A stretch of 32,000 nucleotides of DNA from Halomicronema hongdechloris C2206 (GTDB taxonomy: Bacteria; Cyanobacteriota; Cyanobacteriia; Phormidesmidales; Phormidesmidaceae), in the NCBI RefSeq assembly GCF_002075285.3, contig NZ_CP021983.2, positions 1,440,001 through 1,472,000 on the forward strand, written 5' to 3'. The number at the start of each line of letters is the position of its first letter. Within the stretch, counting starts at the first letter, position 1. Positions 5,599-24,495 of the stretch are shown one piece after another. The notes beneath the pieces were generated by a model, which saw only the letters and a list, made by a program, of their open reading frames with translations, did no database searches and had not been told where the DNA came from. Position numbers and translations under genes: made by a program.

Positions 5599-7527
5599 AT
5601 GGCAATGAAAGAACTCTTACCCTGGCTACCTCAACATCAAAGTATTCGCGAGGCACTTGCTAACTATAGTAAAGGCATAGGTCTACAGGATAGAATTGAA
5701 TATCTCCGCACAATTGCAAAGCACGACCTCGACTTTACTCAAATCACTCGAGTTGACCGGCGTCTACAGGAAATCATAACAGACCATTCCAACCAGATTA
5801 AAGGACTGCAAACTGTTAAAATTGCCATCCTAGCTTCCTCAACAGTAGATCATCTGCAGTCAGCCATTCGGGTGTCTGCACTGCGCCGAGGATTAATTGC
5901 TCAGTGCTATGTTGCTCCTTATGGTCAGTATCATCAGGAGCTCTTAAATTCAAATTCTGGTATATATAAATTTAAGCCAGACATCGTTATTTTAGCTGTT
6001 AATAGCCATGATATTGGCATACAACTGCCATGCTCCTGCACTGCCCAAGAGGTTGAAAATGCCGTAGAGAAAAGAGTAAATGAATGGATACAACTCTGGG
6101 GAATAATTGATACAAAGCTACAAGCAACTATCATTCAACACACGATGGTAATTCCCCCTGAGCGGTTATTTGGGCAATATGATTCTGTACTAGCAGCTGC
6201 CCCAAGTAACATACTCGTGCAAGTCAATGAATGCTTGCGTCGTAAGGCTGCAGAGCATAAAGTTTTACTGTTAAATCTTGATGAAATTGCCGCCTTTGTT
6301 GGCAAAAGTAAGTGGTGCAACCCTACACTTTGGTACCATTCTAAGCAAGATGTTTCTCCAGTATATGCTCCCCTATACGGAGATTATCTAGCTCGGGTAA
6401 TAGCAGCTATTCGGGGGATATCATATAAATGCCTAGTCCTAGATTTAGATAATACTCTTTGGGGTGGTGTTATCGGTGATGATGGCTTAGAGGGAATTAT
6501 TCTCGGACAGGGAGATGCTATTGGTGAAGCCTATCAAGCATTTCAAGCCTATGCAAAAGCGCTAAAAGAACGAGGAATAATTCTAGCAGTATGCTCTAAG
6601 AATGAAGAGATAAATGCCTTAGAACCATTTGAACATCACCCAGAGATGATTCTAAAAAAGGAAGATATTGCCGTTTTCTTTGCGAACTGGGAGGATAAGG
6701 CAACAAACCTCCAACGTATTGCTAAGCATCTAAATATCGGACTAGACTCTCTGGTATTCTTTGATGATAACCCTGTCGAACGAGCAGTGGTAAGGCAACT
6801 AACTCCTGCTGTTGCTGTCCCCGAAGTTCCCGAAGATCCAGCTCTATATGTTCGTTACTTATCAGATGCTGGATATTTTGAAGCTATTTCTTTTTCTGGC
6901 GATGACACTAAACGGGCAGAGCAGTATCTGGCAAACAGTCGTAGAAATGAATTAAGGGAGAAAACTCAGGACCTGGAGAGCTTCTTAGAGAGTCTCCACA
7001 TGGAAATGACTGTTGGGCCGGTTGACAAAGTTTCCTTGCCAAGGGCCACTCAGCTGATAAATAAAAGCAACCAGTTTAACCTCACAACTCGTCGCTATAC
7101 CGAAACTCAAGTCAAGCAGATGAGTGAAGATCCAGATATTTTATGTCTTCAAATTCGTCTCAAAGATGATTTCGGAGACAACGGATTAATCAGTGTTATC
7201 ATCGCAAAGCCAATCTTACTAGGATCTGAGCAAGCTCTTCATATTGATACATGGCTAATGAGTTGCCGTGTATTAGGTCGACAAGTCGAGAAAGAAGCCC
7301 TGAATATCTTGGTTAATCAAGCTAAGGAAAGAGGGTACAGTACATTACATGGAGAATATATTGAAACTGCAAAAAACCAGATAGTAAGGGATCATTATAC
7401 TAATCTTGGATTTAAGCTACTATATGAAAAACAGGAGCAAGATAAAGCATTTAGAAGTCTATGGTCATTGAATACTAGTAACTTCGAAGAGTTCAAAACT
7501 ACTATCAAAAGTAAAGTTCTTATTTGA
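5599..7527 (+). CDS. FkbH-like three-domain protein (N-terminal alpha/beta domain, HAD subfamily IIIC phosphatase/loader, C-terminal GNAT-like domain)
   Basis: Signature LVLDLDNTLWGGVIGDDGLEGI (DxDxT of FkbH/HAD-IIIC), then AVCSKNEE and FFDDNPVER. C-terminal GNAT-like block is WLMSCRVLGRQVEKEAL...GF. The stop is 12 nt before the ACP gene. Confidence 0.85.
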   Translation: MAMKELLPWLPQHQSIREALANYSKGIGLQDRIEYLRTIAKHDLDFTQITRVDRRLQEIITDHSNQIKGLQTVKIAILASSTVDHLQSAIRVSALRRGLIAQCYVAPYGQYHQELLNSNSGIYKFKPDIVILAVNSHDIGIQLPCSCTAQEVENAVEKRVNEWIQLWGIIDTKLQATIIQHTMVIPPERLFGQYDSVLAAAPSNILVQVNECLRRKAAEHKVLLLNLDEIAAFVGKSKWCNPTLWYHSKQDVSPVYAPLYGDYLARVIAAIRGISYKCLVLDLDNTLWGGVIGDDGLEGIILGQGDAIGEAYQAFQAYAKALKERGIILAVCSKNEEINALEPFEHHPEMILKKEDIAVFFANWEDKATNLQRIAKHLNIGLDSLVFFDDNPVERAVVRQLTPAVAVPEVPEDPALYVRYLSDAGYFEAISFSGDDTKRAEQYLANSRRNELREKTQDLESFLESLHMEMTVGPVDKVSLPRATQLINKSNQFNLTTRRYTETQVKQMSEDPDILCLQIRLKDDFGDNGLISVIIAKPILLGSEQALHIDTWLMSCRVLGRQVEKEALNILVNQAKERGYSTLHGEYIETAKNQIVRDHYTNLGFKLLYEKQEQDKAFRSLWSLNTSNFEEFKTTIKSKVLI

Positions 7528-7539
7528 GGAAAAGCTATA

Positions 7540-7785
7540 ATGAGTCGCGAAAAAATTTATGAGCAGCTGAATACAGTGTTTCAAGATGTCTTTGATGATG
7601 ATTCAATCAAAGTAGAAGATAATACATCAGCGAAGGATATTAGTGCCTGGGATTCGATGGCTCATATTAACTTGGTTTTGGGCACTGAACAAGAATTTGG
7701 GATTAAGTTCAGAACATCCGAGGTGGCAAAGCTTAACAATGTGGGAGAATTCATTGACTTGATTCAAAACAAGCTAGCTAGCTAG
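7540..7785 (+). CDS. Acyl/peptidyl carrier protein (ACP/DltC-like)
   Basis: 81 aa and acidic, with WDSMAHINLVLGTEQEFGI, the DS(L/M) phosphopantetheine-attachment motif (Ser39, codon 7654-7656). It sits between the loader and the MBOAT. Confidence 0.85.
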   Translation: MSREKIYEQLNTVFQDVFDDDSIKVEDNTSAKDISAWDSMAHINLVLGTEQEFGIKFRTSEVAKLNNVGEFIDLIQNKLAS

Positions 7786-7967
7786 CTAGAGAATATGACT
7801 CACCAAATTCTTTTAGTTTCAGTGTGTAAACCTAGGCACTAAATCCAAGGTATTGCCGTAGAAAAACCATCAGTAATGACTGGATGTAAATCCAAATTGC
7901 TTGATGAAGCCTCTAATTCTTCTAATAAAGAAGCAAATTAAATTCTAACTTAGTTGAATTCAAAATA

Positions 7968-9572
7968 ATGCTTTTTAATTCATACGAATTCATTCTACTA
8001 TTTGTGCCGATAACACTTATCGGATTTTGCTTAGTTACTAGATTGAAGCACCAAAGACTTACAATTTTTTGGCTTGTTATTGCATCTTTTTTCTTCTACG
8101 GCTGGTGGAATCCACCTTATTTACTATTACTGCTGCTATCGATTGGAGTGAACTATATTCTAGGCCAAGCTCTGAATCGAGCTTATATGGCAGAAGATGA
8201 AAGTGTTGGTAAGGTGCTGCTTATCGGCGGCATAGTCTTCAACCTAGGTCTTATCGGCTATTATAAATATTTTAATTTTTTTGTAGACAATGTTAATGCT
8301 ATTGTCGGCACATCATTTAATATATCTGCAATTGTTTTGCCTCTTGGCATTTCATTCTATACCTTTCAACAAATCTCTTATTTAGTTGATAGCCTAGAAG
8401 GGGAGACAAAACACTATAGGTTTATAGATTATTGCCTGTTTGTCAGCTTCTTTCCACAGCTTATTGCTGGTCCTATTGTTAGTCACCAAGAAATGATGCC
8501 CCAGTTCTCTAGAAGGGGCAAATTCGGGATTAGTCAAGAGAGCCTAGCAATAGGCTTAACAATTTTTTCAATAGGCTTATTTAAAAAGGTAATTCTAGCA
8601 GACCAAATTGCTCTCTATTCAACCCCTGTATTTAATGCTGCTGATCAAGGTGTTTCGCTGACAATAGCAGAGGCTTGGATGGGAGCATTAGCGTATACTA
8701 TGCAGATTTATTTCGATTTTTCTGGCTACTCTGATATGGCGATTGGCATAGCTCGGTTATTTAGTATTCAACTGCCTCTTAACTTTAATTCCCCTTATAA
8801 AGCAGTCAATATTATTGATTTTTGGGGACGCTGGCACATGACATTAACACGCTTCCTTACACGTTACTTGTATAATCCAATCGCCCTAAGCTTGTCTCGA
8901 AAACGAGCCCGTGATGGAAAAGACCTGATTAAGAGAGGAGTTGGAAGCTTTAGTGCGTTTACTGAACTACTGGCATTTCCTACCATCACTACCATGTTCC
9001 TGGCCGGACTCTGGCATGGTGCAGGCTGGCAGTATATTGTATTTGGTTTACTTCATGGGTTGTATCTTACAGTAAATCACGGCTGGCACATGTTACTTAA
9101 GGCATTTGGCCAGGTTCCTAAGAAGACAACATGGTGGCAAAATCGGCTGGGTCATCTACTAACTTTTGGGTGTGTTGTCGTAGCAATGGTTTTCTTCAGG
9201 GCACCGAGTGTTAATAATGCCATAACTATTTTGTCAGCGATGGTAGGAGCTAACGGTATATCTTTAAGCGATGGTGCCTTATTTACAAATCAGCTATTCA
9301 GCAATGCAAAATTGGGACTCTTATGGATAGTAGCTTTAATGGCAATTACGTTTTTATGCCCCAATACACAGGAATGGCTATCAGAACATAGTCCTGCTTT
9401 GGATTATAAACCCATAAATCCTACCAAGCCTTTTCATAACTGGGCTAGTTATATTCAGAAACATTTGAAATGGCAGCCTAATCACGCTTGGGCTATGATA
9501 ACAGCTGCAATTGCTGTAACAGGTTTTCTAGGACTTTCAGGGGTTAGTGAATTTATCTATTTTCAATTCTAA
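7968..9572 (+). CDS. Membrane-bound O-acyltransferase, AlgI/DltB/PatA type (MBOAT)
   Basis: Polytopic. Alignable by eye to AlgI along its whole length: LPLGISFYTFQQISYLVD, FFPQLIAGPI, ALAYTMQIYFDFSGYSDMAIG, and FWGRWHMTLTRFL with the invariant His (codon 8835-8837), then GLWHGAGW. Confidence 0.9.
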   Translation: MLFNSYEFILLFVPITLIGFCLVTRLKHQRLTIFWLVIASFFFYGWWNPPYLLLLLLSIGVNYILGQALNRAYMAEDESVGKVLLIGGIVFNLGLIGYYKYFNFFVDNVNAIVGTSFNISAIVLPLGISFYTFQQISYLVDSLEGETKHYRFIDYCLFVSFFPQLIAGPIVSHQEMMPQFSRRGKFGISQESLAIGLTIFSIGLFKKVILADQIALYSTPVFNAADQGVSLTIAEAWMGALAYTMQIYFDFSGYSDMAIGIARLFSIQLPLNFNSPYKAVNIIDFWGRWHMTLTRFLTRYLYNPIALSLSRKRARDGKDLIKRGVGSFSAFTELLAFPTITTMFLAGLWHGAGWQYIVFGLLHGLYLTVNHGWHMLLKAFGQVPKKTTWWQNRLGHLLTFGCVVVAMVFFRAPSVNNAITILSAMVGANGISLSDGALFTNQLFSNAKLGLLWIVALMAITFLCPNTQEWLSEHSPALDYKPINPTKPFHNWASYIQKHLKWQPNHAWAMITAAIAVTGFLGLSGVSEFIYFQF

Positions 9573-9707
9573 TATAATCATCATACTCATTGAAAATTGA
9601 AATTGAAAATATAGTTTAGTCAAATATATTGCCGGTGTCAGCTTCCATTTCTGATTTGATAAGCAAAATGAGAGTCTTGTCTAGCTTAAAAGATAGTCCA
9701 AGGTCCT

Positions 9708-10826
9708 ATGTCTTCATATGCTAAATCATTAAAGTTCTTCGCTGGCTTTTCAGCTATTTACCTAGCAGCTGTTGCTTGCATTAACCTTTGGCTAGATCCT
9801 TTCGGTTTGAGAAATCACGGAGGTAGACTTAGTCATGCTCGTCTTGTGAAGGCCATTCAGGTTAACCGACTTAATCCAGATGTTGTTTTCGTTGGTTCTT
9901 CCAGTGTAGCTATTGGCCTAAATCCTGAACATGAAGTGTTTCAAGACTATAAATCAGTTTATAACTTAGGTATCTTCGGGGCAAATTTTTACGAGTTAGG
10001 GCATTATTTTCGGCATGCAGCACATGGGGATAACCTCGAGAAGGCCTTTATTGCCTTAGACTTTTATGGATTTAACAAGTTCATGGAGGTAAAGCCCGGT
10101 TTTTCGGAAAGTCGACTAAATTCAAGGCGAATGCATCCTCGAGACTTTCTAGAGCTATATTTTTCGTTAGAGGCCTTGACTCTAATTAGGGATGCCAATG
10201 TAGAAGAAAACTATTTTGCTTCCAACGGACTTCTACCTAAACTTCAAAATTGGAATATACAAGACCGAGAAGAACTTTTTGCTAAGCATCTACAGCAAAA
10301 TATATTAGAGGAAGGAGGGATGTATTATGGAGATTATGCCCTTTCTGAGAAAGCATTTCAAGAATTAGCCCATGTTGTCTCACTGGCTCAAAAAGAAAAC
10401 ATCGACATTCAATTTTTCCTGCCTGCTCCTCATGCTACTCTTTTTCATTATGTCTTAGATACTCCCGAATATTGGACAATCTACAAAGAGTGGTTGCGGA
10501 AAATCGTCAAAATTTACCCAGTATGGGATTTTTCAGGATGTAATAGAATTACGACAAAGTCTGTAGATTCAAGTGAAGAGTATTATGAAGATCCACTTCA
10601 CTTTACTCCCAAAGTAGGGAGCCTGATGATTGAACGAGTATACGCACGTGAGTCAAGTGAACTTCTACCGAAATTTGGTATCTATGTAACGCCTGATAAT
10701 GTTGATAGCCATTTGAAGGAAGTTGAAAAGCAATGTGATCGCTGGAAACAGGAAAATCCAAAGACTATTGCATGGCTAGAAAGTCTAAACCTTAAGCCAG
10801 CATTAATATCTTCTCGTCAAGAATAG
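9708..10826 (+). CDS. N-terminally anchored SGNH/DltD/AlgJ-like putative extracytoplasmic acyltransferase, paralog 1
   Basis: Single N-terminal hydrophobic anchor. VVFVGSSSV is a candidate nucleophile block, and EDPLHFT is a DxxH block like SGNH block V, the DltD Asp/His or the AlgJ/AlgX DxHW. It lies directly downstream of the MBOAT. Confidence 0.6.
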   Translation: MSSYAKSLKFFAGFSAIYLAAVACINLWLDPFGLRNHGGRLSHARLVKAIQVNRLNPDVVFVGSSSVAIGLNPEHEVFQDYKSVYNLGIFGANFYELGHYFRHAAHGDNLEKAFIALDFYGFNKFMEVKPGFSESRLNSRRMHPRDFLELYFSLEALTLIRDANVEENYFASNGLLPKLQNWNIQDREELFAKHLQQNILEEGGMYYGDYALSEKAFQELAHVVSLAQKENIDIQFFLPAPHATLFHYVLDTPEYWTIYKEWLRKIVKIYPVWDFSGCNRITTKSVDSSEEYYEDPLHFTPKVGSLMIERVYARESSELLPKFGIYVTPDNVDSHLKEVEKQCDRWKQENPKTIAWLESLNLKPALISSRQE

Positions 10827-10905
10827 TTGAATGGATTAATCAGGAGCCTAGGAAATAGTATCTATAAACTTTACTCACTTATGATTTTTACTTATCTTTA
10901 GCAGC

Positions 10906-12009
10906 ATGTCTTATCATAGTAAATTTCTCAGGAACTTCTTTAGTTATACTGCAGCTTGTATGCTCGTTGTCTTGGGAGTTAATGCATTTGTAGACCCTTA
11001 TGGAATTCGTAAGGCTGGAGGACGAGTTGCAAATGATCGATTAGTCAAAGCTATTAAGGTTTCTCAAATAAAACCAAAGGTTGTCTTTTTAGGATCATCA
11101 GGTGTTGCTAGGGGACTTAATCCTAGTCATACTGCTTTTTCAGAAAGTAGACCAGTTTACAATTTGTCTCTTTTAGGGGCTAGTATTTATGAAATAAAGC
11201 GATATTTTGACTACGCGGTTGCGCATAACAAACTTGAGCATGCCATTATTGGCCTTGATTTCTATGCATTTAATGACTCTAGGGAGGTAAGGCCTGGTTT
11301 TTCAGAAACAAGACTGAATTCCCAATATATTTCCCCTAAAGATCTTTTAGGCATTTATCTATCTCTTGATTCCCTCAACCTAGTAATGAATCCTGATCAG
11401 AGAGGATATTATTTCGCTGATGATGGAACATATGAGCATCGAATTCAAATAGGCATAGAACGCCAGTTCGAGATAAAGCTTATTGAAGACTTTACTCAGT
11501 CCGAACAAATGTATTGGAACTATAAGTTTTCTGAGGCAACAATTGGTCACTTTCAGTCAATAGTTGAATCTGCCGATTCAGAAGGGGTTAGAGTTGATAT
11601 TTTTCTACCTCCGTTGCATGCAACTTTATTTTATTCTGCAATGATGTCTAACTACTGGCCAACTTACGAAAAATGGTTAAAGAGAATTGTTAATATTCAT
11701 CCTGTTTGGGATTTTTCGGGATGTAATACTATTACTACCGAGCCAATCAGCGGAGAAATGAATTGGTTTGAGGATCCATCCCACTATACTGAAGAAGTAG
11801 GTGATCTAATCCTTAATAAACTATCTGAAGCTGAGAGTGGAAAGTCACTAAGAGACTTTGGCCAATATGTGACATCTGAAAATGTAAATGAGCACCTCCA
11901 ACAGGTTAGATCTCAATGCCAAAAATGGTCAAATTCTAACCCTAATATTATGCATTGGCTAGAGGAACTTAACCTAATAAATCGAATGAAGATCTCAACA
12001 GCAGAATAA
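10906..12009 (+). CDS. N-terminally anchored SGNH/DltD/AlgJ-like putative extracytoplasmic acyltransferase, paralog 2
   Basis: Collinear with the previous protein end to end. Shared blocks: VVFLGSSGV, YNL, LDFYAFN, PGFSETRLNS, FLPPLHATLF, HPVWDFSGCNTITT, EDPSHYT. Confidence 0.6.
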   Translation: MSYHSKFLRNFFSYTAACMLVVLGVNAFVDPYGIRKAGGRVANDRLVKAIKVSQIKPKVVFLGSSGVARGLNPSHTAFSESRPVYNLSLLGASIYEIKRYFDYAVAHNKLEHAIIGLDFYAFNDSREVRPGFSETRLNSQYISPKDLLGIYLSLDSLNLVMNPDQRGYYFADDGTYEHRIQIGIERQFEIKLIEDFTQSEQMYWNYKFSEATIGHFQSIVESADSEGVRVDIFLPPLHATLFYSAMMSNYWPTYEKWLKRIVNIHPVWDFSGCNTITTEPISGEMNWFEDPSHYTEEVGDLILNKLSEAESGKSLRDFGQYVTSENVNEHLQQVRSQCQKWSNSNPNIMHWLEELNLINRMKISTAE

Positions 12010-12087
12010 AAATATAATTTTATGAATTATCGAACCTATTATTTAATAATAGGATAGTAGAAGCTAAAGTCATCATCTGGCAACACC

Positions 12088-13623
12088 ATGGAATTTCCAT
12101 TACAGCATAAAACTTCAATTTCTTTCTCTTCAGGTGATCTTGACCTTTTTAGCAAGGCAAGCCATGATCGTAACCCTTTGCATCTCTCCGAAGACTATGC
12201 TCGCAAAACTCCATTTGCCCAACGTGTAGTTTTTGGCGTTTTGGGTGGTTTATCTTGTTTAAAGTATTTACAGGACCGAGCAGATTTTCAACTGAAAAAA
12301 ATTTTTCTAGAATTTTTAGGTCCCTTATTTATTAATCAGTTTTATTCATTAGAGATAACTGAAAGTTCACAGGAGCAAGTAACTGCGCGGATTTTCGATG
12401 GTAGACGCCTAATGCTAAAAATGAAAGTGAATTTTCGACCAGGAAATTCACCGACCATTCAGGCCGTATCAGCACAAGCCTCCCGTACCGAGGCTGTAAT
12501 GTTGTCGCCATCAGAACTGACTAGGGGCATTAAGTTGGATGAAGCAACATATTGCCCTAATCTTGAAGCATTACGTATATTAGCTTATCAACTGAGTTTA
12601 CCTGAGAAAGGTGTTGGTGAAGTAGAGATAGCCACATTACTTTGGGCAAGTTACTTCGTGGGAATGGAGTTACCAGGATTCCAAGCACTTTTTTCTAAGC
12701 TAACTCTTAGCTTTGAAAATTCTTTACCCAATCTAAAAAAACCATTTTCCTATACTAGTTCATTAACCTATTTTGACGACCGCTACAATTTACTGCGCAC
12801 AAAAGCTGAGTTATCTGATAACGGTAAATCATTTGCTACTGGAGAAATCCAATCCTTTATTCGCCCTACTTCAACTATTAGTACTTCTCAATATCTCGAG
12901 ACTCTACTGCCGAGTTCTGAATTCTTAAAGGGAAAAGTAGCCTTAGTAACAGGAGCTAGTCGAGGTTTAGGGGCTGCAATTGCACAATCGCTAGCATTGC
13001 AAGGATGTACCGTTCTAGCTAACTTTCTCCGAAGTTATCCTGAAGCTAAATCGCTACAGAAAGCGCTAGAAAATGCACCTGGCCAAGTTATTTTGATGCA
13101 AGGTAATGCAGCGGAATTATCTTGGTGTCTTTCAGCTAAGCAGGAAATTATTTCTAGATATGGCAAGCTAGACTTCTTGATTTGTAATGCTTGTCCTGCT
13201 ATATTACCCCTCTGGTTAGAGCCAACAGCTGTTGATCGGGTGAATGAATATGTCGCTCAAAGCCTAGCTCTCATGAGTGTACCAATGTCTACCTTTCTCA
13301 GTTTAGTATCTGAGAGCTTAGGCTGGAACATTGTTATTTCATCAATCTATGCCAGTCAAGCTTTTCCGGCAGACTTACCTCACTACGTTATCGCGAAATC
13401 TGCAATTGAAGGTCTCACAAAGGTAGCAGCCTCTGAATACAAGGATATTAACTTTGCTATAGTAAGACCTCCCAAATTGCTGACTGATCAGACAAACACG
13501 CCTATCGGTAGACAAAATGCTATATCTGTCGAGAAAGTTGCCGTTTCTATCACAGAGCATTTAAGAAATGTATCTAATAAAACTCAGATAGATATATTAG
13601 AGAATATTTGGGAAATAGATTAA
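12088..13623 (+). CDS. Fusion protein: MaoC-like (R)-hydratase/dehydratase hotdog region + classical short-chain dehydrogenase/reductase
   Basis: N-terminus ASHDRNPLHLSEDYARKTPFAQRVVFGVL is the MaoC hydratase D-x-N-P-x-H motif. The middle, about 150 aa, is probably a second hotdog repeat. C-terminus has KVALVTGASRGLGAAIA (TGxxxGxG), ISSIYAS and YVIAKSAIEGL (YxxxK). Confidence 0.8.
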   Translation: MEFPLQHKTSISFSSGDLDLFSKASHDRNPLHLSEDYARKTPFAQRVVFGVLGGLSCLKYLQDRADFQLKKIFLEFLGPLFINQFYSLEITESSQEQVTARIFDGRRLMLKMKVNFRPGNSPTIQAVSAQASRTEAVMLSPSELTRGIKLDEATYCPNLEALRILAYQLSLPEKGVGEVEIATLLWASYFVGMELPGFQALFSKLTLSFENSLPNLKKPFSYTSSLTYFDDRYNLLRTKAELSDNGKSFATGEIQSFIRPTSTISTSQYLETLLPSSEFLKGKVALVTGASRGLGAAIAQSLALQGCTVLANFLRSYPEAKSLQKALENAPGQVILMQGNAAELSWCLSAKQEIISRYGKLDFLICNACPAILPLWLEPTAVDRVNEYVAQSLALMSVPMSTFLSLVSESLGWNIVISSIYASQAFPADLPHYVIAKSAIEGLTKVAASEYKDINFAIVRPPKLLTDQTNTPIGRQNAISVEKVAVSITEHLRNVSNKTQIDILENIWEID

Positions 13624-13664
13624 TGGTTTTTCCCTAGGAATTGAATTTCAGTTTCCTAAAGATA

Positions 13665-14811
13665 TAGCAATCCCAGTTGATTTATGAACAAGGTGAATAT
13701 TCTTCTATTTTAGAAAAATCGAACTTTTGATGATCTATAAAGAACTCAAACAGATACTTTACAGCGGGGAAAGAACGACACAACCTCCAAAATCTTCTCA
13801 ATGAATTTTTGGCTTGTAACCAAACATCTTCCACTGGATTTTGTTCTGGTGAATTGGGTGCAAATAGAATACATTTGAATTGCCATTCTGTCTCTTCCTT
13901 CCCATGATTGACTGTAGCTAAAAAATCTTTGATCTCTTGTGACTTATGATAACTAGCGCCATCCCAAATTAATGCGATTTGCTTCCCAGGATTTTGTTCC
14001 TGCAAGTACTTCATAAAAGCAACTGTATTCTCTCCATTCCCTTTCTCGTAAGGATGCAAAATAAATTCTTTTGTTTGATAGTTTAATGCGCCATAATATG
14101 TTTGCCTGATTCTCTCGTTTGTAATAGGGATTTCGATTCGCATATCTGTCTTGCCCCAGACATATCCACAAACATCACCCCAAAGGAGATGACACTCATC
14201 CAAAAAAAGTACAATCAATTCCCCAGACTCAATTTTGAACTGGTTTTGACGGATAAATCCTTGGATTTCTTCTCTTTTTTTTTGACTAGAGCTGGATCAG
14301 ATTTCGGGTTGGTTTTTTGAGATTTCTTCCAACTAATACCTGCTTCCGAAAAAAGTGTATAGTAGCTTTGCTTAGACTTGTAAATCACATCATAATGTTC
14401 ATCTAAATATGAAACTAATTCATCAAAGTTCCAGTAGTTTCTGGTTCTCAGCCACGAGATAATTTCTGTACGATCATCTGGGGTTAGGTAACTTTTTGAT
14501 CCTTGGTAGCCGAGTTTAATACCTTCAATGCCTTGTGCTTCGAATCTGTTCTTCCAATATGTAATAAAAGACTTGTTTATTCCCAGAAATTTGGTAATCT
14601 TAAAATATGGCTCACCCTCCAATGCCATTTTTACAGCCAATGCTCGCTTAAGCTCTCTTGAATCAGGATTACTACTTATAAAGTCTGATAGAATAGCACG
14701 ATTATCTACTTTTTGTTGGTGTTCTAATTGAAAACTATTCATGAGTACAACTGTATTGACAGCTTGATGATATTTATATACTACCCATTCTAAACTCATT
14801 TAGGGTTGCTA
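13665..14811 (-). mobile_element. IS630-family insertion sequence with TA target-site duplication
   Basis: Imperfect terminal inverted repeats start with TAGCAA (13665-13688 versus the reverse complement of 14788-14811, 17/24 matches by eye). TA flanks each end (13663-13664 and 14812-13). The size, about 1.15 kb, fits one two-frame DDE transposase. Confidence 0.8.
13682..14799 (-). CDS. IS630-family DDE transposase, two overlapping frames joined by a probable programmed -1 frameshift
   Basis: OrfA (14215-14799) has an HTH-type N-terminus. OrfB (13682-14218) carries DECHLLWGD, IWDGASYHKS and NSPEQNPVEDVW (D, D, E). The orfB frame is -1 relative to orfA and stays open back through an A9 run (T9 on the + strand, 14275-14283). 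Slippage there gives ...ALVKKKREEIQGFIRQNQFKIESGELIVLFLDECH. Confidence 0.8.
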
Positions 14812-14989
14812 TATGGCGTAATCTATTTTTTAGAAACTGGAATTCCAGTTGTACCAGAGCATGAACTCTCATAAACTGCACAAGATCTGGACGGTAGTAA
14901 CTCAGGAATAATTTCAACTACTCCAGAGTAACTGATAATGGCAGCATCTTAACTTTTTAAACAAGATATATATTGTCTGTCTTTTATCC

Positions 14990-15084: not shown

Positions 15085-15434
15085 CATATATTTCTAGTGA
15101 AAGACTGTATAAATAAACTTTGAGAAATGACATAGATTAAATTCTATAAGGAACTTCTTGATTGTATGAAATCGTATTTTTTAATTATACTAACATAAAG
15201 ATTTTCTGAGATAATCTTATACATTTAAAAGTAATCTGTTTATTTTTAAGGATTACATAGATTATCAGCTAAATGAAGTTGATTTCATAAAAATCGGATT
15301 TTGCCATGTTTTTTTAATAAAGCGATTCATTATATCTAGATGTGGAATACGATATTCGCTTATCCTATTAATGCTCGGAAAACTCCAATATGAAATTGGA
15401 GAAAAACGGATATTTGAGGAGTTTAGAGCTAAGA

Positions 15435-16166
15435 ATGATGGCTAAAGTGACAGGGGTTATACCTGCCAGATATAAATCAACTCGCTTCGAGGGTAAGCCT
15501 CTCGCTATTCTTGAAGGCAAAACCATGATCCAAATGGTTTATGAGAAATGTTGTAAGAGCAAACTCTTAGATCAGATCATGGTTGCTACAGATGATCAGC
15601 GTATCTACGATAACGTCTTATCTTTTGGTGGAAATGCAATTATGACCGAAACCAATATTGCCACTGGAAGTGATCGTTGCTATGAGGCCGTTAAGTATGA
15701 TAGCTGTGATATTGTAGTCAATATTCAGGGTGATGAACCACTCATTGATCCGAACGTCATCGATATTTGTATTCAGGCCTTGATAGATGCACCAGAAGCA
15801 GTGTGCTCAACCCCAGTAGTCAAATCAAATAACCCAGACGAGATTAATTCTCCCCATGCAGTTAAAGTAGTACTCAATAAAAAACTTGAAGCACTTTACT
15901 TCTCAAGATATCCAATCCCTTTTTTTCGTAATAATCTAGATGATGAAATCTATTATCGACATATTGGATTGTATTGCTATCGTAAATATTTCCTAGAACA
16001 ATTTGTCTCTATGGCCCAAACCTTTTTAGAACTTTCCGAGTCATTAGAGCAGCTTCGTATTTTAGAAAACGGATATAAGATTCAGTGTTGCCTAGTTGAT
16101 TATGAATCAGTTGGAGTAGATACCCCAGAAGATTTAGAGAAAGTTAAGCGGCTTTTGAAAATATAG
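15435..16166 (+). CDS. kdsB: 3-deoxy-ulosonate cytidylyltransferase (CMP-Kdo synthetase family)
   Basis: Alignable by eye to E. coli KdsB over the full length: GVIPARYKSTRFEGKPL, VATDD, TGSDR, VNIQGDEPL, AVKVVL, ALYFSR, HIGLYCYR, LEQLRILENG, GVDTPEDLEKV. The ORF opens at ATG 15390, but homologs begin just before the IPARY block, so ATG 15435 is preferred. Confidence 0.85.
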   Translation: MMAKVTGVIPARYKSTRFEGKPLAILEGKTMIQMVYEKCCKSKLLDQIMVATDDQRIYDNVLSFGGNAIMTETNIATGSDRCYEAVKYDSCDIVVNIQGDEPLIDPNVIDICIQALIDAPEAVCSTPVVKSNNPDEINSPHAVKVVLNKKLEALYFSRYPIPFFRNNLDDEIYYRHIGLYCYRKYFLEQFVSMAQTFLELSESLEQLRILENGYKIQCCLVDYESVGVDTPEDLEKVKRLLKI

Positions 16167-16205
16167 ATTTTATTATTAATTGAATACTACTGGAACTAAG
16201 AGGAT

Positions 16206-17246
16206 ATGCAGATGTTGACTAAAATTCCGAAGATTTCTTGTTCTCTTTTGGCGGCATTAGATAGTGATTACTCCCTAACAGATGTTCTAAAAAAACTAGA
16301 TATCGTTGGTGTAGATATTATTCATTATGACGTCAGTGATAATGCAAAGACTTTAGATCTTAAGGAGATTAATAAATTACGTACTAGCACCTGCCTACCA
16401 TTTGATGTACATTTAAGTGTCGAAAATCCCGATCCATATCTAAAAGATGTTCAGCTTCAGCCAGAAGATTATTTTTGTCTTCATGTTGAAAATAATCTGA
16501 GCTGGGCACAACTTGAAGAAGTACGACATAAGGTTGGTTGTAATTTTGGTTTGGCAATTAACACAGACACTCCTGTAAGTGATCTATTTGACAAAGCACA
16601 AATTCTCGATTATGTGCTGTTTATGTCTGCCACCCCTGGTGTTTCTGGTGGACAGTTTAACGATCAAGTAATCAGTAAGATCAAGGCATTTCGTCGCGCC
16701 TTTCCAGAGGTTAAAGTGCACGTAGATGGTGGTGTCAACCATTTATCTGCTGCCCTATTAAGAGAGTTAGGAGTTGATGTCCTCATCTCTGGTTCTTACA
16801 TCTTAAAAAATGAAGATTATCTAGTTCAGCTAACTAAGCTGTTTGGTAAGAACCTATACCTGCGTGTTGCCGATATTATGAGGGCTCATGAACAGGTACC
16901 TCGTGTCACCCCAGATACTGACATTTGTCAGACAGTCTTAGAAATGAATACTAAGTTGGTTGGTTGCACTTGTGTCGTAGATCATGACAACCGCTTGCTT
17001 GGTCTAGTGACGGATGGAGATGTTCGTAGAAGATTGATTCTTCAACCTGATTTGTCTAGTCTAAAGGCAAAGGATTTAATGGCAAAGCATCCCTTTGTTA
17101 TTACACCAGATGTGCGACTCCTTAATTTGCTACGGGAACTAGATAAGAGACGTGCAGGATTTGATGTGATTCCAGTTATAGATGCATCTGAACAATGTAT
17201 TGGTCTTGTCTGGTTACGAGATATTATTTCAAGTCACGCTTTATAA
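16206..17246 (+). CDS. Fusion: ribulose-phosphate 3-epimerase-like TIM barrel + KpsF/KdsD-like CBS-domain pair
   Basis: N-terminal about 215 aa carry RPE blocks IIHYDVSD (H-x-D...D), FDVHLS, MSATPGVSGGQF, VHVDGGV and ISGSYI. C-terminal about 125 aa are VADIM...LLGLVTDGDVRRRL...VIPVID...IGLVWLRDI, two CBS motifs resembling the tail of arabinose-5-phosphate isomerase. Alternative start ATG 16212 has GAGGA 7 nt upstream. Confidence 0.7.
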   Translation: MQMLTKIPKISCSLLAALDSDYSLTDVLKKLDIVGVDIIHYDVSDNAKTLDLKEINKLRTSTCLPFDVHLSVENPDPYLKDVQLQPEDYFCLHVENNLSWAQLEEVRHKVGCNFGLAINTDTPVSDLFDKAQILDYVLFMSATPGVSGGQFNDQVISKIKAFRRAFPEVKVHVDGGVNHLSAALLRELGVDVLISGSYILKNEDYLVQLTKLFGKNLYLRVADIMRAHEQVPRVTPDTDICQTVLEMNTKLVGCTCVVDHDNRLLGLVTDGDVRRRLILQPDLSSLKAKDLMAKHPFVITPDVRLLNLLRELDKRRAGFDVIPVIDASEQCIGLVWLRDIISSHAL

Positions 17247-17297
17247 GCTAGCAAACAGATTTCTTGATTCTCTCAGTACATAGATCTAGGTAAGGAT

Positions 17298-18320
17298 ATG
17301 ATTATTAAACTCAGCCAATCTTCTACCGATATGGCTCTAAAGCACCTGGTGAAATGGTTTGCTCAGCAAGATGTTGAAGCCCGTCAGATTAACTGGGGAG
17401 CTCAGGTATTATTGGTTACCTCTTCGAAATGGAAAGGGGACGCTGACTATCTCAAAAGTATAGATGGGGTTGAATCCGTTACTGAGATGACAGCAGATTA
17501 TCAACTCTGTACTCGTAAATTTCAACCTCAAGACACCGTGATTGATTTAGGTGACGGCGTCATTTTTGGTCGTGGTGCAACTGTCATGATGGCGGGTCCC
17601 TGTGCGGTTGAGTCAGAAGACCAAGTCATGCGGACTGCTGAATTTTTGCGTAGTAAGTTTGACATTAAAGTATTTCGAGCGGGGGCATTTAAGCCTCGCA
17701 CATCACCCTACACATTCCAAGGCCTTGCAGATGAAGGACTAAATTTGTTAGCCAAGGTTCGTAAAGAATTTGGCATGAAAATTATCACTGAAGTTAAAGA
17801 TACAACTCACCTGGCAGCAGTCGCTGATGTAGCTGACATCATCCAAATTGGAACCAAGGCCATGTACAACTTTTCCCTTTTGGCTATGTGCGGTCAGCTT
17901 AAGCAGCCAATTGTCTTAAAGCGGGGCTTTATGACAACAATTAAGGAGTTCTTGCAGGCAGCTGATTTTATTCTTAGCAGTGGTAACTCTAAGGTTATTC
18001 TATGCGAGAGAGGTATTCGTAGCTTTGAACCTCAAACCCGTTTTTGCTTAGATGTTTGTTCTGCTGCTTTAATCAAAGAGTTAAGCCATCTGCCCATTGT
18101 TCTCGATCCCTCACATGCCATGGGTATTGCAGCTCAAGTGCCTCTTGTTGCTCAATCAGCTGCGGCTTTAGGTGTTGATGGACTATTAATCGAGACTCAC
18201 CCTGATCCTGCTAATGCAAAGAGTGATAAAGAACAAGCACTGTCTTTTGAGGAATTTGGTCGAATAGTGCCAGTTCTAGATAAAATTTGCACTGCAGTAG
18301 GCCGGAGGCTGATTGCGTGA
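17298..18320 (+). CDS. Type I-beta DAHP-synthase-like PEP-utilising aldolase with Thermotoga-type N-terminal ferredoxin-like domain; substrate uncertain
   Basis: MMAGPCAVES (metal Cys), FRAGAFKPRTSPYTFQGL (a DAHPS-type KPRTS block, not the KANRSS block of KDO8P synthase), IIQIG, VLKRGF, ILCERGIRSFE, LDPSH, IETHPDP. The N-terminal about 90 aa (...SIDGVESVTEMTADYQLCTRKFQPQDTVIDLGD) resembles the regulatory domain of T. maritima DAHPS as I recall it. Confidence 0.75.
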   Translation: MIIKLSQSSTDMALKHLVKWFAQQDVEARQINWGAQVLLVTSSKWKGDADYLKSIDGVESVTEMTADYQLCTRKFQPQDTVIDLGDGVIFGRGATVMMAGPCAVESEDQVMRTAEFLRSKFDIKVFRAGAFKPRTSPYTFQGLADEGLNLLAKVRKEFGMKIITEVKDTTHLAAVADVADIIQIGTKAMYNFSLLAMCGQLKQPIVLKRGFMTTIKEFLQAADFILSSGNSKVILCERGIRSFEPQTRFCLDVCSAALIKELSHLPIVLDPSHAMGIAAQVPLVAQSAAALGVDGLLIETHPDPANAKSDKEQALSFEEFGRIVPVLDKICTAVGRRLIA

Positions 18321-18985
18321 GTTCCCTTCTCCTTGACTCCATTCTTGATAGTTGCCAAGCAGTCATCTTTGATATGGATGGCGTGATAGCAGATACTGAA
18401 CCACTTAAGTTTCAGGCTTATCAATTTGTATTTCGAGAGGAGTATGGGATTGAGCTACCAATCGAGGATATAGCTTGGCGAGGTATGAAAGAGCAGTCTG
18501 TAATTGCCTATTGGTTCAATAAATTTCAGCTGGTGGGTGATCCTCAGAAACTAATTGAGGATAAGCGAGCTGCCTACCATTCTCTTTTGGTGCAAGGTAA
18601 AATCACAGCAATACCTGGCATCATGGCATTTATCAAATATCTTCGATCGCTGGGCAAGTTGCGGGCAGTTGCCACGAGCTCTAGTTGCCAAGAGGCGGTT
18701 ATGGTATTAGAAGCTCTGCATATAAGGGATGCCTTTCATCAGGTTATAACTCGAGATGATGTGCAAAGAATGAAGCCTGATCCAGAAGTTTATCTTGCTG
18801 CAGCATCAGCCTTAGGAGCCAATCCATCTAATTGCATAGTCTTTGAAGATAGTCAGTCGGGAGTTGGTGCTGCTAAGGCAGCTGGAATGTTTTGTGTGGG
18901 AGTGTTAACTTCATTTTCAAGAAAATCTCTTGGGCCCGTCGACCAAGTAATCAATGATTTCACAGATTTAGCTATAAATTTTTAG
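18317..18985 (+). CDS. HAD-superfamily hydrolase, subfamily IA (beta-phosphoglucomutase/sugar-phosphatase-like)
   Basis: Motif I VIFDMDGVIADTEP, motif II AVATSS, motif III KPDPEVY, motif IV VFEDSQSGVGAAKAAGM. The in-frame GTG at 18317 overlaps the upstream stop (GTGA, 18317-18320), which suggests translational coupling. The ORF track opens at 18287. Confidence 0.8.
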   Translation: MSSLLLDSILDSCQAVIFDMDGVIADTEPLKFQAYQFVFREEYGIELPIEDIAWRGMKEQSVIAYWFNKFQLVGDPQKLIEDKRAAYHSLLVQGKITAIPGIMAFIKYLRSLGKLRAVATSSSCQEAVMVLEALHIRDAFHQVITRDDVQRMKPDPEVYLAAASALGANPSNCIVFEDSQSGVGAAKAAGMFCVGVLTSFSRKSLGPVDQVINDFTDLAINF

Positions 18986-19282
18986 AATTTACAATGGAAA
19001 TGTTTTCTAACCATGGAATATCTCTTTGCGTCATGACTAGAATTTAAGTCACTTTTTTGGCTTAAATCCAAGCTTCAAAAGCTAATAGCAGAGAAAAAAT
19101 CCAGGAATTCTCTCATCTATATCATATAAGTATCTATTAAAATCTTTATAACCCTCAAAATCCTGAAAATGTTTCTAGTTTAGTCCTAAAATTTCTCCAT
19201 TAGTAGAATTCTTAGCCCAAATTTAAGCTTATTGTGGCGAACAAACCTTAATATTGAGACTGTCTATAATTAGAATAAAAAT

Positions 19283-21896: not shown

Positions 21897-21940
21897 GAAT
21901 GTTTTATTTAGAATAATGAGTCTATACCCAGGGAGTAGAG

Positions 21941-22996: not shown

Positions 22997-23067
22997 TAGA
23001 ATCAGATCTGGACAGATATGATGTATCGGTGATTCTGACAGTTAATAGCCTTGAGTCTTAAGTTAGC

Positions 23068-23100
23068 ATGGGTGGGAATTCACCCGCCCATATGCTTTTT
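23068..23100 (+). terminator. Rho-independent terminator after the epimerase gene
   Basis: ATGGGTGGG-aattca-CCCGCCCAT is a 9-bp GC-rich stem (one G-U pair) with a 6-nt loop, followed by ATGCTTTTT. A T-run is present only on the + strand. Confidence 0.65.
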
Positions 23101-23195
23101 GAATTCTCGAATTTCAGAGACCTGTAAATTCTCATAGAAAACTTACAATAGGCCTTACTATTTCTTGAAATTAATTGTAAAGATTAAGATTTACG

Positions 23196-24359: not shown

Positions 24360-24379
24360 AAATTGCTAGATAGAAATTG
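24352..24379. repeat. Perfect 14-bp tandem duplication CTAGATAGAAATTG x2 spanning the stop codon of the AT3 gene
   Basis: 24352-24365 and 24366-24379 are identical. The TAG stop of the AT3 gene is at 24357-24359. Confidence 0.9.
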
Positions 24380-24495
24380 TTTGTTGCATTATGGCCTACA
24401 TGAGTTTCAGATTTGTCTGTCAAGCCTTAATATTTGTCTTTTTTGGGCTAAGAGTGGTGTTTTAAGGCTCGGAAATAGCTATTGATGCTAGCAAT

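Follow-up and report, generated by a model that had tools for sequence, protein, structure and literature searches.

We propose that a six-gene module of the cyanobacterium Halomicronema hongdechloris C2206 encodes a carrier-protein-dependent MBOAT-SGNH system that O-acylates an extracytoplasmic glycan, a reading which we regard as reasonably likely but by no means secured. The original prediction had described the module as Dlt-like, with its carrier protein charged by an FkbH-type enzyme instead of an adenylating ligase. Computationally this is largely supported by domain identities, the conservation of catalytic residues, predicted folds and gene linkage across phyla. There is, however, no biochemical or genetic evidence, and the chemistry remains an inference: this holds for the use of the acyl carrier protein (ACP) as donor to the MBOAT, and likewise for the 1,3-bisphosphoglycerate (1,3-BPG) substrate, the acyl group and the acceptor glycan. 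The analysed stretch of DNA (hereafter the window) comprises 32,000 nucleotides, and the six co-directional genes lie inside a low-GC polysaccharide island (GC content 33-45% across positions 5001-25000 versus 53-60% in most of the flanks). The features are as follows.

5599..7527, + strand: FkbH-like loader, 642 aa (open reading frame and profile matches)
7540..7785, + strand: stand-alone ACP, 81 aa (open reading frame and ACP models)
7968..9572, + strand: MBOAT, 534 aa (PF03062, TIGR04091)
9708..10826, + strand: paralog 1, predicted membrane-anchored SGNH/DltD-like protein, 372 aa (AF2 model, Foldseek, sub-threshold DUF1574)
10906..12009, + strand: paralog 2, architecture as paralog 1, 367 aa (similarity to paralog 1)
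12088..13623, + strand: MaoC hot-dog dehydratase/SDR reductase fusion, 511 aa (PF01575, PF00106, PF13561)
13662..14814, - strand: IS630-family insertion sequence (DDE_3 and HTH domains, inverted repeats)
15390..25749, + strand: sugar genes, probable source of the acceptor glycan (domain assignments, synteny in locus L005)

All six predicted open reading frames were recovered on the forward strand, and the motifs on which the prediction relied (LDLDNTLWGG, DSM with Ser39, FWGRWHMTL, GSS(S/G) with D-P-x-H, and the MaoC/SDR signatures) could be located in the translations. Profile-HMM assignment matched the FkbH, ACP, MBOAT, MaoC and SDR models; DUF1574, of the SGNH clan, stayed below threshold for both paralogs (E 1e-4 for paralog 1). 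Since every protein has strong homologues and the six-gene order is kept at ~60-70% identity in other Leptolyngbya-like cyanobacteria (L005, L092), the module is far beyond chance.

The assignment of the first gene as an FkbH-type loader is well founded. The protein combines an N-terminal BF1531/FkbH_N domain (PF21211), a HAD-IIIC phosphatase and a C-terminal GNAT fold, and scores 301 bits against the TIGR01686 FkbH domain (cutoff 147). LDLDNTLWGG occupies residues 281-290 (DNA 6439-6468) and supplies D282-x-D284-x-T, and Cys556 lies in MSCRV of the GNAT-fold domain (DNA 7258-7284); DxDxT, SKN, DD and the MSCRV Cys are invariant among 57 homologues. The protein matches PDB entry 3slr (BF1531) at E 3e-72, and in a Foldseek search its AF2 model (pLDDT 92.4) again matched 3slr over the N-terminal and HAD portions, and GNAT folds over the C-terminal one. 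With the FkbH/OzmB/ZmaN glyceryl-ACP loaders it shares the TIGR01686 domain, made up of HAD-IIIC and a C-terminal domain bearing the Cys, and like them it has its own ACP gene alongside. Its identity to the short FkbH encoded in a zwittermicin-type cluster is 30%, and the two have the catalytic residues DxDxT and MSCRV in common, whereas the long N-terminal BF1531-like domain is absent from short ZmaN-type enzymes. The enzyme is thus expected to transfer a glyceryl unit from 1,3-BPG to the adjacent ACP, the chemistry being inferred. FkbI/J/K/G-type oxidation or methylation enzymes and a KS are not found in the window, and therefore the product should not be a PKS extender or starter; unlike that of the FkbH/OzmB/ZmaN loaders, its predicted fate is export as an ester.

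The ACP gene starts 12 nt past the stop codon of the loader gene. Its product matches ACP models at E 1e-9 and PDB entry 2lml (a putative ACP) at E 3e-19, but the DltC model at just 2e-4, under its equivalog cutoff. The modifiable serine that had been predicted is present, Ser39 in W-D-S-M (DNA 7648-7659) being the phosphopantetheine attachment site, and W37-D38-S39 is 99% conserved in 82 ACPs encoded downstream of FkbH-like genes. In a set of 84 FkbH loci from other bacteria, an ACP adjoins the FkbH gene in ~81, and an MBOAT, scored within a flank of +/-10 kb, is found in ~60, usually next to FkbH-ACP. These FkbH-ACP-MBOAT loci come from cyanobacteria, Alpha-, Beta- and Gammaproteobacteria, Acidobacteriota, Elusimicrobia and Myxococcota and show several gene orders, so that the adjacency is conserved across phyla; the module is present in hundreds of bacterial species. 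FkbH-ACP loci without an MBOAT hold another acyl-acceptor enzyme (WcbI, LbH/hexapeptide or NRPS condensation domains). FkbH-ACP, with or without MaoC/SDR, is a portable cassette that supplies the donor and is combined elsewhere with LbH, WcbI and NRPS condensation partners. The cassette therefore needs an offloading transferase, for which the MBOAT is the obvious candidate here. A literature search found no published account of an FkbH-ACP-MBOAT-DltD-like arrangement, in agreement with the prediction that it is uncharacterised. This uncharacterised module is widespread, and the proposal is directly testable.

The inference on the acyl group rests on the MaoC-SDR fusion, a widespread family of ~500 aa. 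The protein retains the catalytic hydratase-2 Asp/His (H26-D-R-N-P-L-H32) and SDR Tyr/Lys (Y433-x-x-x-K437, YVIAK), along with TGASRGLG at 288-295. Trans-AT polyketide synthase loading modules of the DH-KR-FkbH-ACP type provide a lactate starter, and the activity set here (dehydratase, ketoreductase, FkbH, ACP) is the same; in some loci, such as L001, even the gene order MaoC-SDR, FkbH, ACP is that of these modules. By this analogy, the fusion probably turns glyceryl-S-ACP into lactyl-S-ACP, and therefore the locus would probably install lactate rather than glycerate. An FkbH loading domain has also been tabulated as yielding D-lactate-ACP from 1,3-BPG (BiGMeC table, PMC7901079). Unlike in the synthases, however, the activities here reside in discrete proteins and not in megasynthase domains. 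Since the MaoC and SDR domains are not PKS-type DH and KR, the lactyl route is an analogy and its outcome inferred. Moreover, we are aware of no proven case of an O-lactyl ester on a bacterial polysaccharide, where lactyl ethers and pyruvate ketals are usual; glyceryl esters occur in gellan-type polysaccharides. Lactyl is our best guess, made with slightly less than even confidence; unmodified glyceryl is doubtful though a real possibility, and some other group would account for the rest.

The mechanism could also be left unchanged with unmodified D-glycerate as the group moved, the MaoC-SDR protein acting elsewhere or making another C3/C4 derivative (pyruvoyl, hydroxypyruvoyl). To our knowledge all characterised FkbH enzymes stop at glyceryl-ACP, and the MaoC-SDR gene is accessory: it is present in ~1/4 of FkbH-ACP-MBOAT loci, and glyceryl-ACP must therefore be a competent donor in the remaining ~3/4. 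We nonetheless consider this explanation unlikely for the present locus, as the retained catalytic residues argue for action on the ACP-bound unit and tight linkage of the fusion to FkbH-ACP recurs in unrelated contexts. In 5 of 6 distant contexts, and likewise in L001 and L005, homologues of the fusion are encoded next to an FkbH-like gene and the gene of a carrier protein of 75-78 aa; they accompany FkbH-ACP in MBOAT, LbH/WcbI-acyltransferase and NRPS surroundings.

The MBOAT scores 72 bits against PF03062 and 173 bits against TIGR04091 (DltB), under the equivalog cutoff of 375, and residues 121-411 match the PDB DltB entries 8jem and 6bug at E 2e-27. The predicted catalytic His290 lies in FWGRWHMTL (residues 285-293, DNA 8820-8846), which aligns with the catalytic-His segment of DltB. 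The C-terminus is F529-I-Y531-F-Q-F534 (FIYFQF, DNA 9552-9569), of the FxYxxF class; among 59 high-scoring MBOATs located beside FkbH-ACP, 55 have this motif as their very last residues. FxYxxF has been defined as an acyl-Tyr shuttle motif, fused in PatA/AlgI-type MBOATs and carried by the separate peptide DltX in Dlt (PMC12148441). Judged by its sequence, the MBOAT is DltB-like yet no plain DltB analogue; as a DltX-type FxYxxF is fused at its C-terminus, the system can be viewed as a hybrid that unites the carrier-protein donor of Dlt with the fused shuttle of PatA/AlgI.

The two putative SGNH partners are 42% identical. Paralog 1 carries GSSS at 63-66 (DNA 9894-9905) and DPLH (DNA 10590-10601), with a predicted triad of Ser65, Asp295 and His298; G63, S65 and H298 do not vary among 76 relatives, and the family has 6321 representatives. 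With its AF2 model (pLDDT 94.5), the top ten PDB matches in Foldseek were all DltD (E 4e-5 to 1.5e-3, probability 0.97-1.00), followed by other SGNH proteins and PatB; although significant, the likeness to DltD is loose (TM 0.32-0.37). Paralog 1 is therefore predicted, from its model, to be an N-terminally membrane-anchored, extracytoplasmic SGNH/DltD-like acyltransferase, its activity being inferred. The claim that both paralogs are SGNH/DltD-like thus stands for paralog 1, whereas paralog 2, for which there is no model, has only the same motifs (G63-S-S65-G and D290-P-S-H293, DPSH) with all invariant residues kept. By analogy with AlgJ/AlgX, paralog 2 may act as a further transferase or serve as a relay. 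Both lineages occur side by side in related cyanobacteria (L005, as well as P0122/P0135 and P0128/P0131 on shared contigs).

Two functions might, however, simply lie side by side: the MBOAT and SGNH proteins would form an acetyl-CoA-dependent O-acetylation pair of the PatA/PatB or AlgI/AlgJ type, and FkbH-ACP-MaoC/SDR would feed another, cytoplasmic transferase, for example in nucleotide-sugar or ulosonic-acid acylation. Of 63 metagenomic loci with an MBOAT beside the paralogs' SGNH-like family, 59 have neither carrier protein nor FkbH, and therefore the MBOAT/SGNH pair can use a non-ACP donor, presumably acyl-CoA. A fused FxYxxF is likewise typical of acetyl-CoA users such as PatA, and elsewhere FkbH-ACP-MaoC/SDR clearly serves non-MBOAT transferases. 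Nevertheless, we find this possibility rather improbable. No other ACP-dependent acyltransferase (LbH, WcbI, condensation domain or FabH-like) is encoded in the window, the recurrence of the MBOAT beside FkbH-ACP in several gene orders speaks against it, and the minimal four-gene cassette on S. meliloti pSymB has no other transferase candidate. In addition, MBOATs adjoining carrier genes lie outside the clade that carrier-less MBOATs form in a tree, although the sampling of both sets may partly explain the split; the donor type is not obviously readable from the MBOAT sequences. Finally, the same SGNH-like family occurs in AMP-ligase-ACP-MBOAT-SGNH arrangements (L139, L149), and therefore carrier-dependent versions of the pair exist with different loaders.

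The carrier-dependent acylation system that we favour shares with Dlt (DltA-DltC-DltB-DltX-DltD, D-alanylation of teichoic acids) a stand-alone carrier-protein donor, a DltB-homologous MBOAT, a membrane-anchored SGNH partner whose best structural match is DltD, and the FxYxxF tyrosine shuttle. It differs in having an FkbH-type HAD/GNAT enzyme in place of the adenylating ligase, a shuttle fused to the MBOAT rather than a DltX microprotein, two SGNH paralogs, a Gram-negative-type host, a predicted hydroxy acid instead of D-Ala, and presumably a polysaccharide instead of teichoic acid as acceptor. With PatA/PatB, AlgI/AlgJ/AlgX and WssH/WssI it has in common the extra C-terminal MBOAT helices with fused FxYxxF, the extracytoplasmic SGNH partners and the polysaccharide context, two SGNH-like partners being found in alginate acetylation too (AlgJ, AlgX). 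Those systems use acetyl-CoA, and non-Dlt MBOAT/SGNH pathways are said in a 2025 paper to lack a carrier protein (PMC12148441), whereas in this module the MBOAT is accompanied by an ACP, a loader and a tailoring enzyme, and the SGNH partner is of an uncharacterised DUF1574-like lineage and not of the AlgX/DHHW/PatB families.

If this system operates as we envisage, the HAD Asp of the loader would dephosphorylate 1,3-BPG in the cytoplasm, and the glyceryl group would be held on Cys556 before moving to the phosphopantetheine arm at Ser39. The MaoC-SDR protein would then dehydrate glyceryl-S-ACP to the enol of pyruvoyl-S-ACP and reduce it to lactyl-S-ACP, a logic already proposed for the DH-KR-FkbH-ACP modules. 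After docking of the ACP at the cytoplasmic face of the MBOAT, His290 may catalyse acyl transfer to Tyr531 of the fused shuttle at the outer face. The acyl-Tyr could be passed to Ser65 of one or both DltD-like paralogs, which would attach the acyl group as an ester to a hydroxyl of the polysaccharide that the neighbouring CMP-ulosonate and glycosyltransferase genes produce.

Those genes (15390-25749) encode a KdsB-type cytidylyltransferase, an Rpe-like/CBS fusion, a DAHP-synthase-type aldolase, a HAD phosphatase, three glycosyltransferases, an NDP-sugar epimerase/dehydratase and an AT3 acyltransferase. They are the probable source of the acceptor, itself inferred; flippase, polymerase and export genes are not found in the window, and the acceptor is therefore not identified. 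As had been predicted, domain searches of the window found no adenylation enzyme, ketosynthase or PPTase, and no acyltransferase of the PKS type, the only other acyltransferase being the AT3-family membrane protein (23196-24359). That the MBOAT acylates a small molecule from an FkbH-derived starter (polyketide, nonribosomal peptide or glycolipid), as proposed for MBOATs of suomilide/aeruginosin clusters, is very improbable: close FkbH-like homologues (56% identity) do adjoin NRPS modules or form fusions with them, and cyanobacterial aeruginosin-type clusters hold FkbH domains and an MBOAT, but KS, A, C and TE domains are all missing from the window, the module sits in a polysaccharide island, as in most other loci, and an FxYxxF shuttle with extracytoplasmic SGNH partners is a hallmark of polymer acylation.

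Synteny of the module with the sugar genes is conserved in L005, where the CMP-ulosonate genes directly follow the MaoC-SDR gene and the junction has no IS630-family element. The element in H. hongdechloris has two open reading frames (13682-14218 and 14215-14799) and 27-nt terminal inverted repeats (13662-13688 and 14788-14814); it interrupts the cluster and is no part of the module. As a counterpoint, in the H. hongdechloris genome itself this element separates the module from the sugar genes.

MBOAT-SGNH acylation systems are at present sorted into two kinds: the Dlt system, which has a carrier-bound donor, a separate DltX and D-alanine as the transferred group, versus acetyl-CoA users in which the shuttle is fused. 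The Halomicronema module belongs to neither Dlt nor PatAB/AlgIJX. We consider it probable, though by no means assured, that it is a carrier-dependent MBOAT-SGNH acylation system fed by an FkbH-ACP pair. The whole finding is an inference drawn from gene context, sequence and structure prediction. The module resembles Dlt in having a presumed carrier donor, a DltB-like MBOAT and a DltD-like transferase, but it has neither DltA nor a separate DltX, and the FxYxxF motif ends the MBOAT itself; the lack of DltA and DltX is the ground for rejecting a plain Dlt orthologue. It resembles PatAB and AlgIJX in its fused Tyr shuttle and polysaccharide context, but those systems are carrier-less, whereas here ACP and loader genes lie directly upstream of the MBOAT. 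According to ORF calls and a motif check, all six genes of the original prediction are present, with the motifs it quoted in place:

5599-7527, + strand, FkbH-like protein (loader), 642 aa
7540-7785, + strand, carrier protein (ACP), 81 aa
7968-9572, + strand, MBOAT, 534 aa
9708-10826, + strand, SGNH-like paralog 1
10906-12009, + strand, SGNH-like paralog 2
12088-13623, + strand, MaoC-SDR fusion protein, 511 aa

Profile-HMM searches agreed with the families proposed for them, matching FkbH_N, TIGR01686, HAD-IIIC, ACP, MBOAT, MaoC and SDR models and, weakly, DUF1574 for the paralogs.

The loader (XM38_013650, 100% identity) scores 301 bits against the TIGR01686 FkbH domain (cutoff 146.65; model positions 3-320 of 323), and profile searches also match it to FkbH_N and HAD-IIIC. 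PDB 3slr (BF1531, N-terminal and phosphatase domains) matches at E = 3e-72. With 57 homologues as input, AlphaFold gave a model (pLDDT 92.4) whose N-terminal and HAD parts align with 3slr at TM 0.87 on target and whose C-terminal domain matches many GNAT acetyltransferases, confirming the proposed HAD-IIIC/GNAT assignment. Residues D282, D284, S333-K-N, D389-D390 and S555-C556-R-V are invariant among the 57 homologues. On a Bacillus thuringiensis plasmid there is a short FkbH homologue, 30% identical over residues 277-606, that keeps DxDxT and MSCRV; the gene order there is hybrid NRPS/PKS, LLM oxidoreductase, ABC exporter, HAD-IIIC phosphatase and NRPS. We take this locus to be the zwittermicin cluster and the short FkbH gene to be zmaN. 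The zmaN product is a biochemically characterised glyceryl-ACP loader. The FkbH profile and fold, the invariant residues and the zmaN-type alignment together make it a well-founded, if untested, inference that the loader puts a glyceryl unit from 1,3-bisphosphoglycerate (1,3-BPG) on the ACP. The loader shares with the FkbH family the TIGR01686 domain, the HAD DxDxT and the Cys of the C-terminal domain, but the partner genes of FkbH PKS/NRPS systems are lacking in the window; related FkbH-like genes elsewhere do occur in NRPS clusters. It is an FkbH-family protein operating outside PKS/NRPS. As a separate observation, for the BF1531-like residues 1-270 (window 5599-6400) some homologues have Lipase_GDSL_2 (SGNH) Pfam matches, and an 'ASST' stretch stands at the expected place of block I; this N-terminal domain is perhaps an SGNH domain that has degenerated or that serves in editing.

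The ACP gene begins 12 nt downstream of the loader, and ACP models match its 81-aa product at E = 1e-9. Across 82 ACPs encoded downstream of FkbH-like genes, W-D-S39 is conserved to 99%. The match to PDB 2lml (E = 3e-19) is stronger than that to the DltC equivalog model (E = 2e-4; 21 bits, cutoff 68). As judged from these scores, the product is a carrier protein closer to generic or specialised ACPs than to DltC, and not a DltC orthologue. A palindromic tetranucleotide run, (CTAG)4 at 7772-7789, covers the last codons and the stop of this gene (K-L-A-S-stop).

For the MBOAT, the sole NCBIfam match is the DltB model (173 bits, equivalog cutoff 375), and residues 121-411 align with solved DltB structures at E = 2e-27, the catalytic-His segment included. 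His290 is conserved. The C-terminus is about 120 residues longer than that of DltB and finishes in F529-I-Y-F-Q-F534, the last six residues of the protein, and a microprotein of its own for the motif is not needed; an FxYxxF end is found in 55 of 59 high-scoring related MBOATs. Anderson et al. (2025) regard FxYxxF as an "acyl shuttle" (PMC12148441). In Dlt it resides on the microprotein DltX, whose Tyr gets D-Ala from DltC via DltB, and in PatA, AlgI and similar proteins it is fused to the MBOAT C-terminus, the Tyr being auto-acetylated from acetyl-CoA (PMC12148441). The shuttle of the window MBOAT is fused, as in PatA, and its gene neighbourhood includes a carrier protein, as in Dlt. That the ACP is its actual donor is inferred from conserved gene linkage.

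In each of the two paralogs, which are 42% identical, Lys or Arg residues precede an N-terminal TM helix, and this should place the catalytic domain outside the cytoplasm. G63, S65, D274, F275 and H298 are invariant in 76 relatives, and the motifs G-S-S65 and D295-x-x-H298 fit putative SGNH blocks I and V. The AF2 model of paralog 1 (pLDDT 94.5) has DltD as all of its best ten Foldseek PDB matches (E = 4e-5 to 1.5e-3, probability 0.97-1.00); PAF-AH/GDSL proteins and PatB rank next. TM-scores against DltD are low (0.32-0.37, at 12-14% identity), so the likeness is at the level of the fold and not close. The proposed SGNH/DltD-like nature of the paralogs is therefore supported by a model for paralog 1; for paralog 2 it rests on retention of the same motifs. 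Against DUF1574 (PF07611, SGNH clan) the paralogs reach 22.1 and 17.1 bits (cutoff 29.1), with only the C-terminal third aligned, which on profile evidence makes them distant DUF1574 relatives below formal membership. The family numbers 6321 representatives at 50% clustering. Its two paralog lineages are retained together in related cyanobacteria, suggesting a division of labour comparable to that of AlgJ and AlgX.

The identity of the acyl group is less settled. In the fusion protein, the MaoC domain retains the hydratase-2 Asp/His (H-D27-R-N-P-L-H32) and the SDR domain retains TGxxxGxG and YxxxK. Dehydration of 2,3-dihydroxypropanoyl-S-ACP would give the enol of pyruvoyl-S-ACP, and ketoreduction would then yield lactyl-S-ACP. 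The same logic has been proposed for DH-KR-FkbH-ACP loading modules. FkbH loading has also been tabulated as 1,3-BPG to D-lactate-ACP (PMC7901079). By this analogy lactyl may be the likeliest group here within the main model, a choice that we can make only tentatively. The main alternative is that glyceryl itself is transferred: it is what the loader is inferred to attach, and a MaoC-SDR-like gene is present in only about 21 of 84 loci carrying FkbH-like genes. Nonetheless, the approximately 500-aa fusion is a widespread family, and in five of six distant contexts its neighbours are an FkbH-like gene and a carrier of 75-78 aa. In three of the six (L085, L086 and L174, about 5000-11400 in each) an ABC transporter and an acyltransferase of the hexapeptide (LbH) type accompany them, and two lie within NRPS/PKS clusters; the sixth is an NRPS cluster with no visible FkbH. 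A Niveispirillum plasmid (L090, 9001-13481) carries FkbH, ACP, a WcbI-family putative acyltransferase and an SDR, and elsewhere an ACP and then an NRPS module come after a C-domain-FkbH fusion 56% identical to the loader. Given their recurrence with varied partners, we regard FkbH, ACP and MaoC-SDR as a functional unit supplying more than one kind of acyl acceptor; in the LbH- and WcbI-paired loci this donor cassette may have a cytoplasmic counterpart.

A rival explanation would make the MBOAT pair an ordinary acetyl-CoA system that happens to stand next to an unrelated FkbH cassette. The fused shuttle is compatible with it, as is a reverse survey of 80 metagenome loci started from the paralog family: an MBOAT adjoins the paralog-family gene in 63 of them, and a carrier protein is nearby in only four:

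L092, paralog-seeded locus with carrier, of the cyanobacterial FkbH type
L139 792-5572, AMP-binding ligase, ACP, MBOAT and DUF1574-like SGNH gene in that order, in a sugar-nucleotide cluster
L149 4363-9179, the same four genes in the same order, in a sugar-nucleotide cluster
L154, FabH, FabG and ACP, 2.7 kb from the MBOAT

The rarity of carriers indicates that MBOAT and DUF1574-like protein together make up a general O-acyltransferase of two components, usually working without one. FkbH-ACP is one among several plug-in donor modules. L139 and L149, though not of the Dlt family proper, are truly Dlt-like in layout and represent a further carrier-dependent MBOAT system that is uncharacterised. 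When 109 MBOATs were placed in a neighbour-joining tree, 48 carrier-less ones and that of L154 formed one clade, and all FkbH- and AMP-ligase-linked MBOATs fell outside it. The tree fits donor specialisation, but carrier-less and carrier-linked sets were sampled differently and we give it light weight.

The linkage seen from the FkbH side makes the acetyl-CoA explanation unlikely in our estimation. FkbH-like proteins of 640 aa are very common (at least 8000 matches, all E <= 1e-10), with at least 595 stretches confirmed in species-representative genomes. In 84 loci analysed by ORF calling and phmmer, the co-occurrence expected from the original prediction was recovered: the ACP follows the loader in about 81 loci, and in about 60 an MBOAT lies alongside the FkbH-ACP pair, either upstream or downstream. 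Among the taxa represented are Stutzerimonas/Pseudomonas, Paraburkholderia, Acetobacteraceae, Rhizobium, Acidobacteriota, Elusimicrobia and Myxococcota, and chance clustering is rejected because synteny is conserved across phyla. In most of the 84 loci single-sequence phmmer did not detect the SGNH partner, since it is too divergent for such a search. Clustering and hhalign revealed three divergent clusters of membrane-anchored proteins (about 330-360 aa) adjoining these MBOATs, one clearly related to the paralog profile (92% probability) and two weakly (71-77%). A minimal cassette on S. meliloti pSymB (L089, 5858-10893) consists of an MBOAT ending in FLYQGF, a 409-aa protein, an ACP and an FkbH-like gene. 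Capsule export genes of the rkpR/S/T type follow about 5 kb downstream of it. The 409-aa protein matches the paralog profile weakly and contains GGS and DPGH; it has no Pfam match, despite its 'TonB-dependent receptor' annotation.

A secondary-metabolite role is very improbable: no FkbI/J/K/G-type genes and no KS or C partners were found in the window. In full-text literature searches FkbH and MBOAT did appear together, only in aeruginosin/suomilide NRPS papers. An extender-unit role in polyketide synthesis (methoxymalonyl- or hydroxymalonyl-ACP) is rejected on the absence of FkbI/J/K/G and KS genes. Profile searches upheld the earlier claim that the window has no adenylation, KS, PKS-AT or PPTase gene, and none of its ORFs has an AMP-binding domain of a DltA-type ligase.

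Under the carrier-dependent reading, the FkbH enzyme would divert glycolytic 1,3-BPG to a dedicated carrier, with optional conversion to lactyl, and the acyl group would be exported via the shuttle-bearing MBOAT and the DltD-like transferases to form glyceryl or lactyl esters on surface polysaccharides. The module would pair a carrier donor with a fused shuttle, an enzyme harvesting an activated glycolytic intermediate replacing the ATP-dependent ligase. We see it as a real possibility, if somewhat short of even odds, that FkbH-carrier-MBOAT glyceryl/lactyl esterification is a widespread, unrecognised class of bacterial envelope modification. Our literature searches found no description of an FkbH-ACP-MBOAT arrangement and nothing linking HAD-IIIC and ACP with polysaccharide, FkbH with O-antigen, or FkbH with lactate and BryA. 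At present, carrier use among MBOAT-SGNH pathways is held to be limited to Dlt (PMC12148441). If true, this would be the second carrier-protein-dependent pathway of that type, offering candidate enzymology for gellan-type glycerate esters and a modular family in which FkbH, an AMP-ligase or no loader feeds one MBOAT/SGNH core. The finding is widespread and mechanistically coherent, and would extend a freshly established paradigm. Its confirmation would provide new donor chemistry for acylating envelope polymers, a function for three large "hypothetical" families (BF1531/FkbH-like, DUF1574-like and MaoC-SDR fusions) and engineering parts for polysaccharide esters influencing gelling, immunogenicity and phage recognition. 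Lactate or glycerate esters would then be predicted on capsules, O-antigens or EPS of hundreds of species, including Stutzerimonas, Paraburkholderia, Sinorhizobium, Acetobacteraceae, Acidobacteriota and cyanobacteria.

The module lies in a low-GC island (about 5000-25000; 33-45% GC versus 53-60% in most of the flanks). The bordering genes are of the housekeeping kind (upstream a PAS histidine kinase; downstream glutaredoxin, a TPR protein, GlgB, MurD and GlyS); the island is of the polysaccharide type. Beyond the module it contains, by domain assignment for the genes:

13662-14814, IS630-family element inserted upstream of the sugar genes, right after the module; its DDE_3 transposase spans two ORFs and its ends are inverted repeats of 27 nt
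15390-18985, CMP-ulosonic-acid gene set downstream of the module: KdsB-type cytidylyltransferase, Rpe-like/CBS fusion, DAHP-synthase-type aldolase, HAD phosphatase
same island, three glycosyltransferases and an NDP-sugar epimerase/dehydratase
23196-24359, AT3-family membrane acyltransferase

The acceptor is probably an ulosonic-acid-containing glycan made by this island, but no flippase, polymerase or exporter genes occur in the window, which makes this assignment the weakest link. Scans for promoters and terminators gave just as many hits as in shuffled controls, so operon boundaries are left unclaimed, and Rfam and tRNA scans of the window gave no matches. The presence of the AT3 acyltransferase means that the glycan may bear an extra (acetyl) ester by a separate route. 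The ulosonic-acid set is unusual in composition. Its cytidylyltransferase scores above the KdsB-type model cutoff; the aldolase reaches 380 bits with the Bacillus-type DAHP synthase model (cutoff 335) versus 130 bits with KDO8P synthase; and a ribulose-phosphate-3-epimerase barrel is joined to a CBS pair typical of KdsD/KpsF, with a HAD-IA phosphatase alongside. The product of the set may be a 3-deoxy-heptulosonic acid or a different ulosonic acid that is not Kdo. It also adjoins the acylation module in an Elainellaceae relative with the same six-gene order (L005), where the IS630 element is missing at the junction and the CMP-ulosonate genes come straight after the MaoC-SDR gene.
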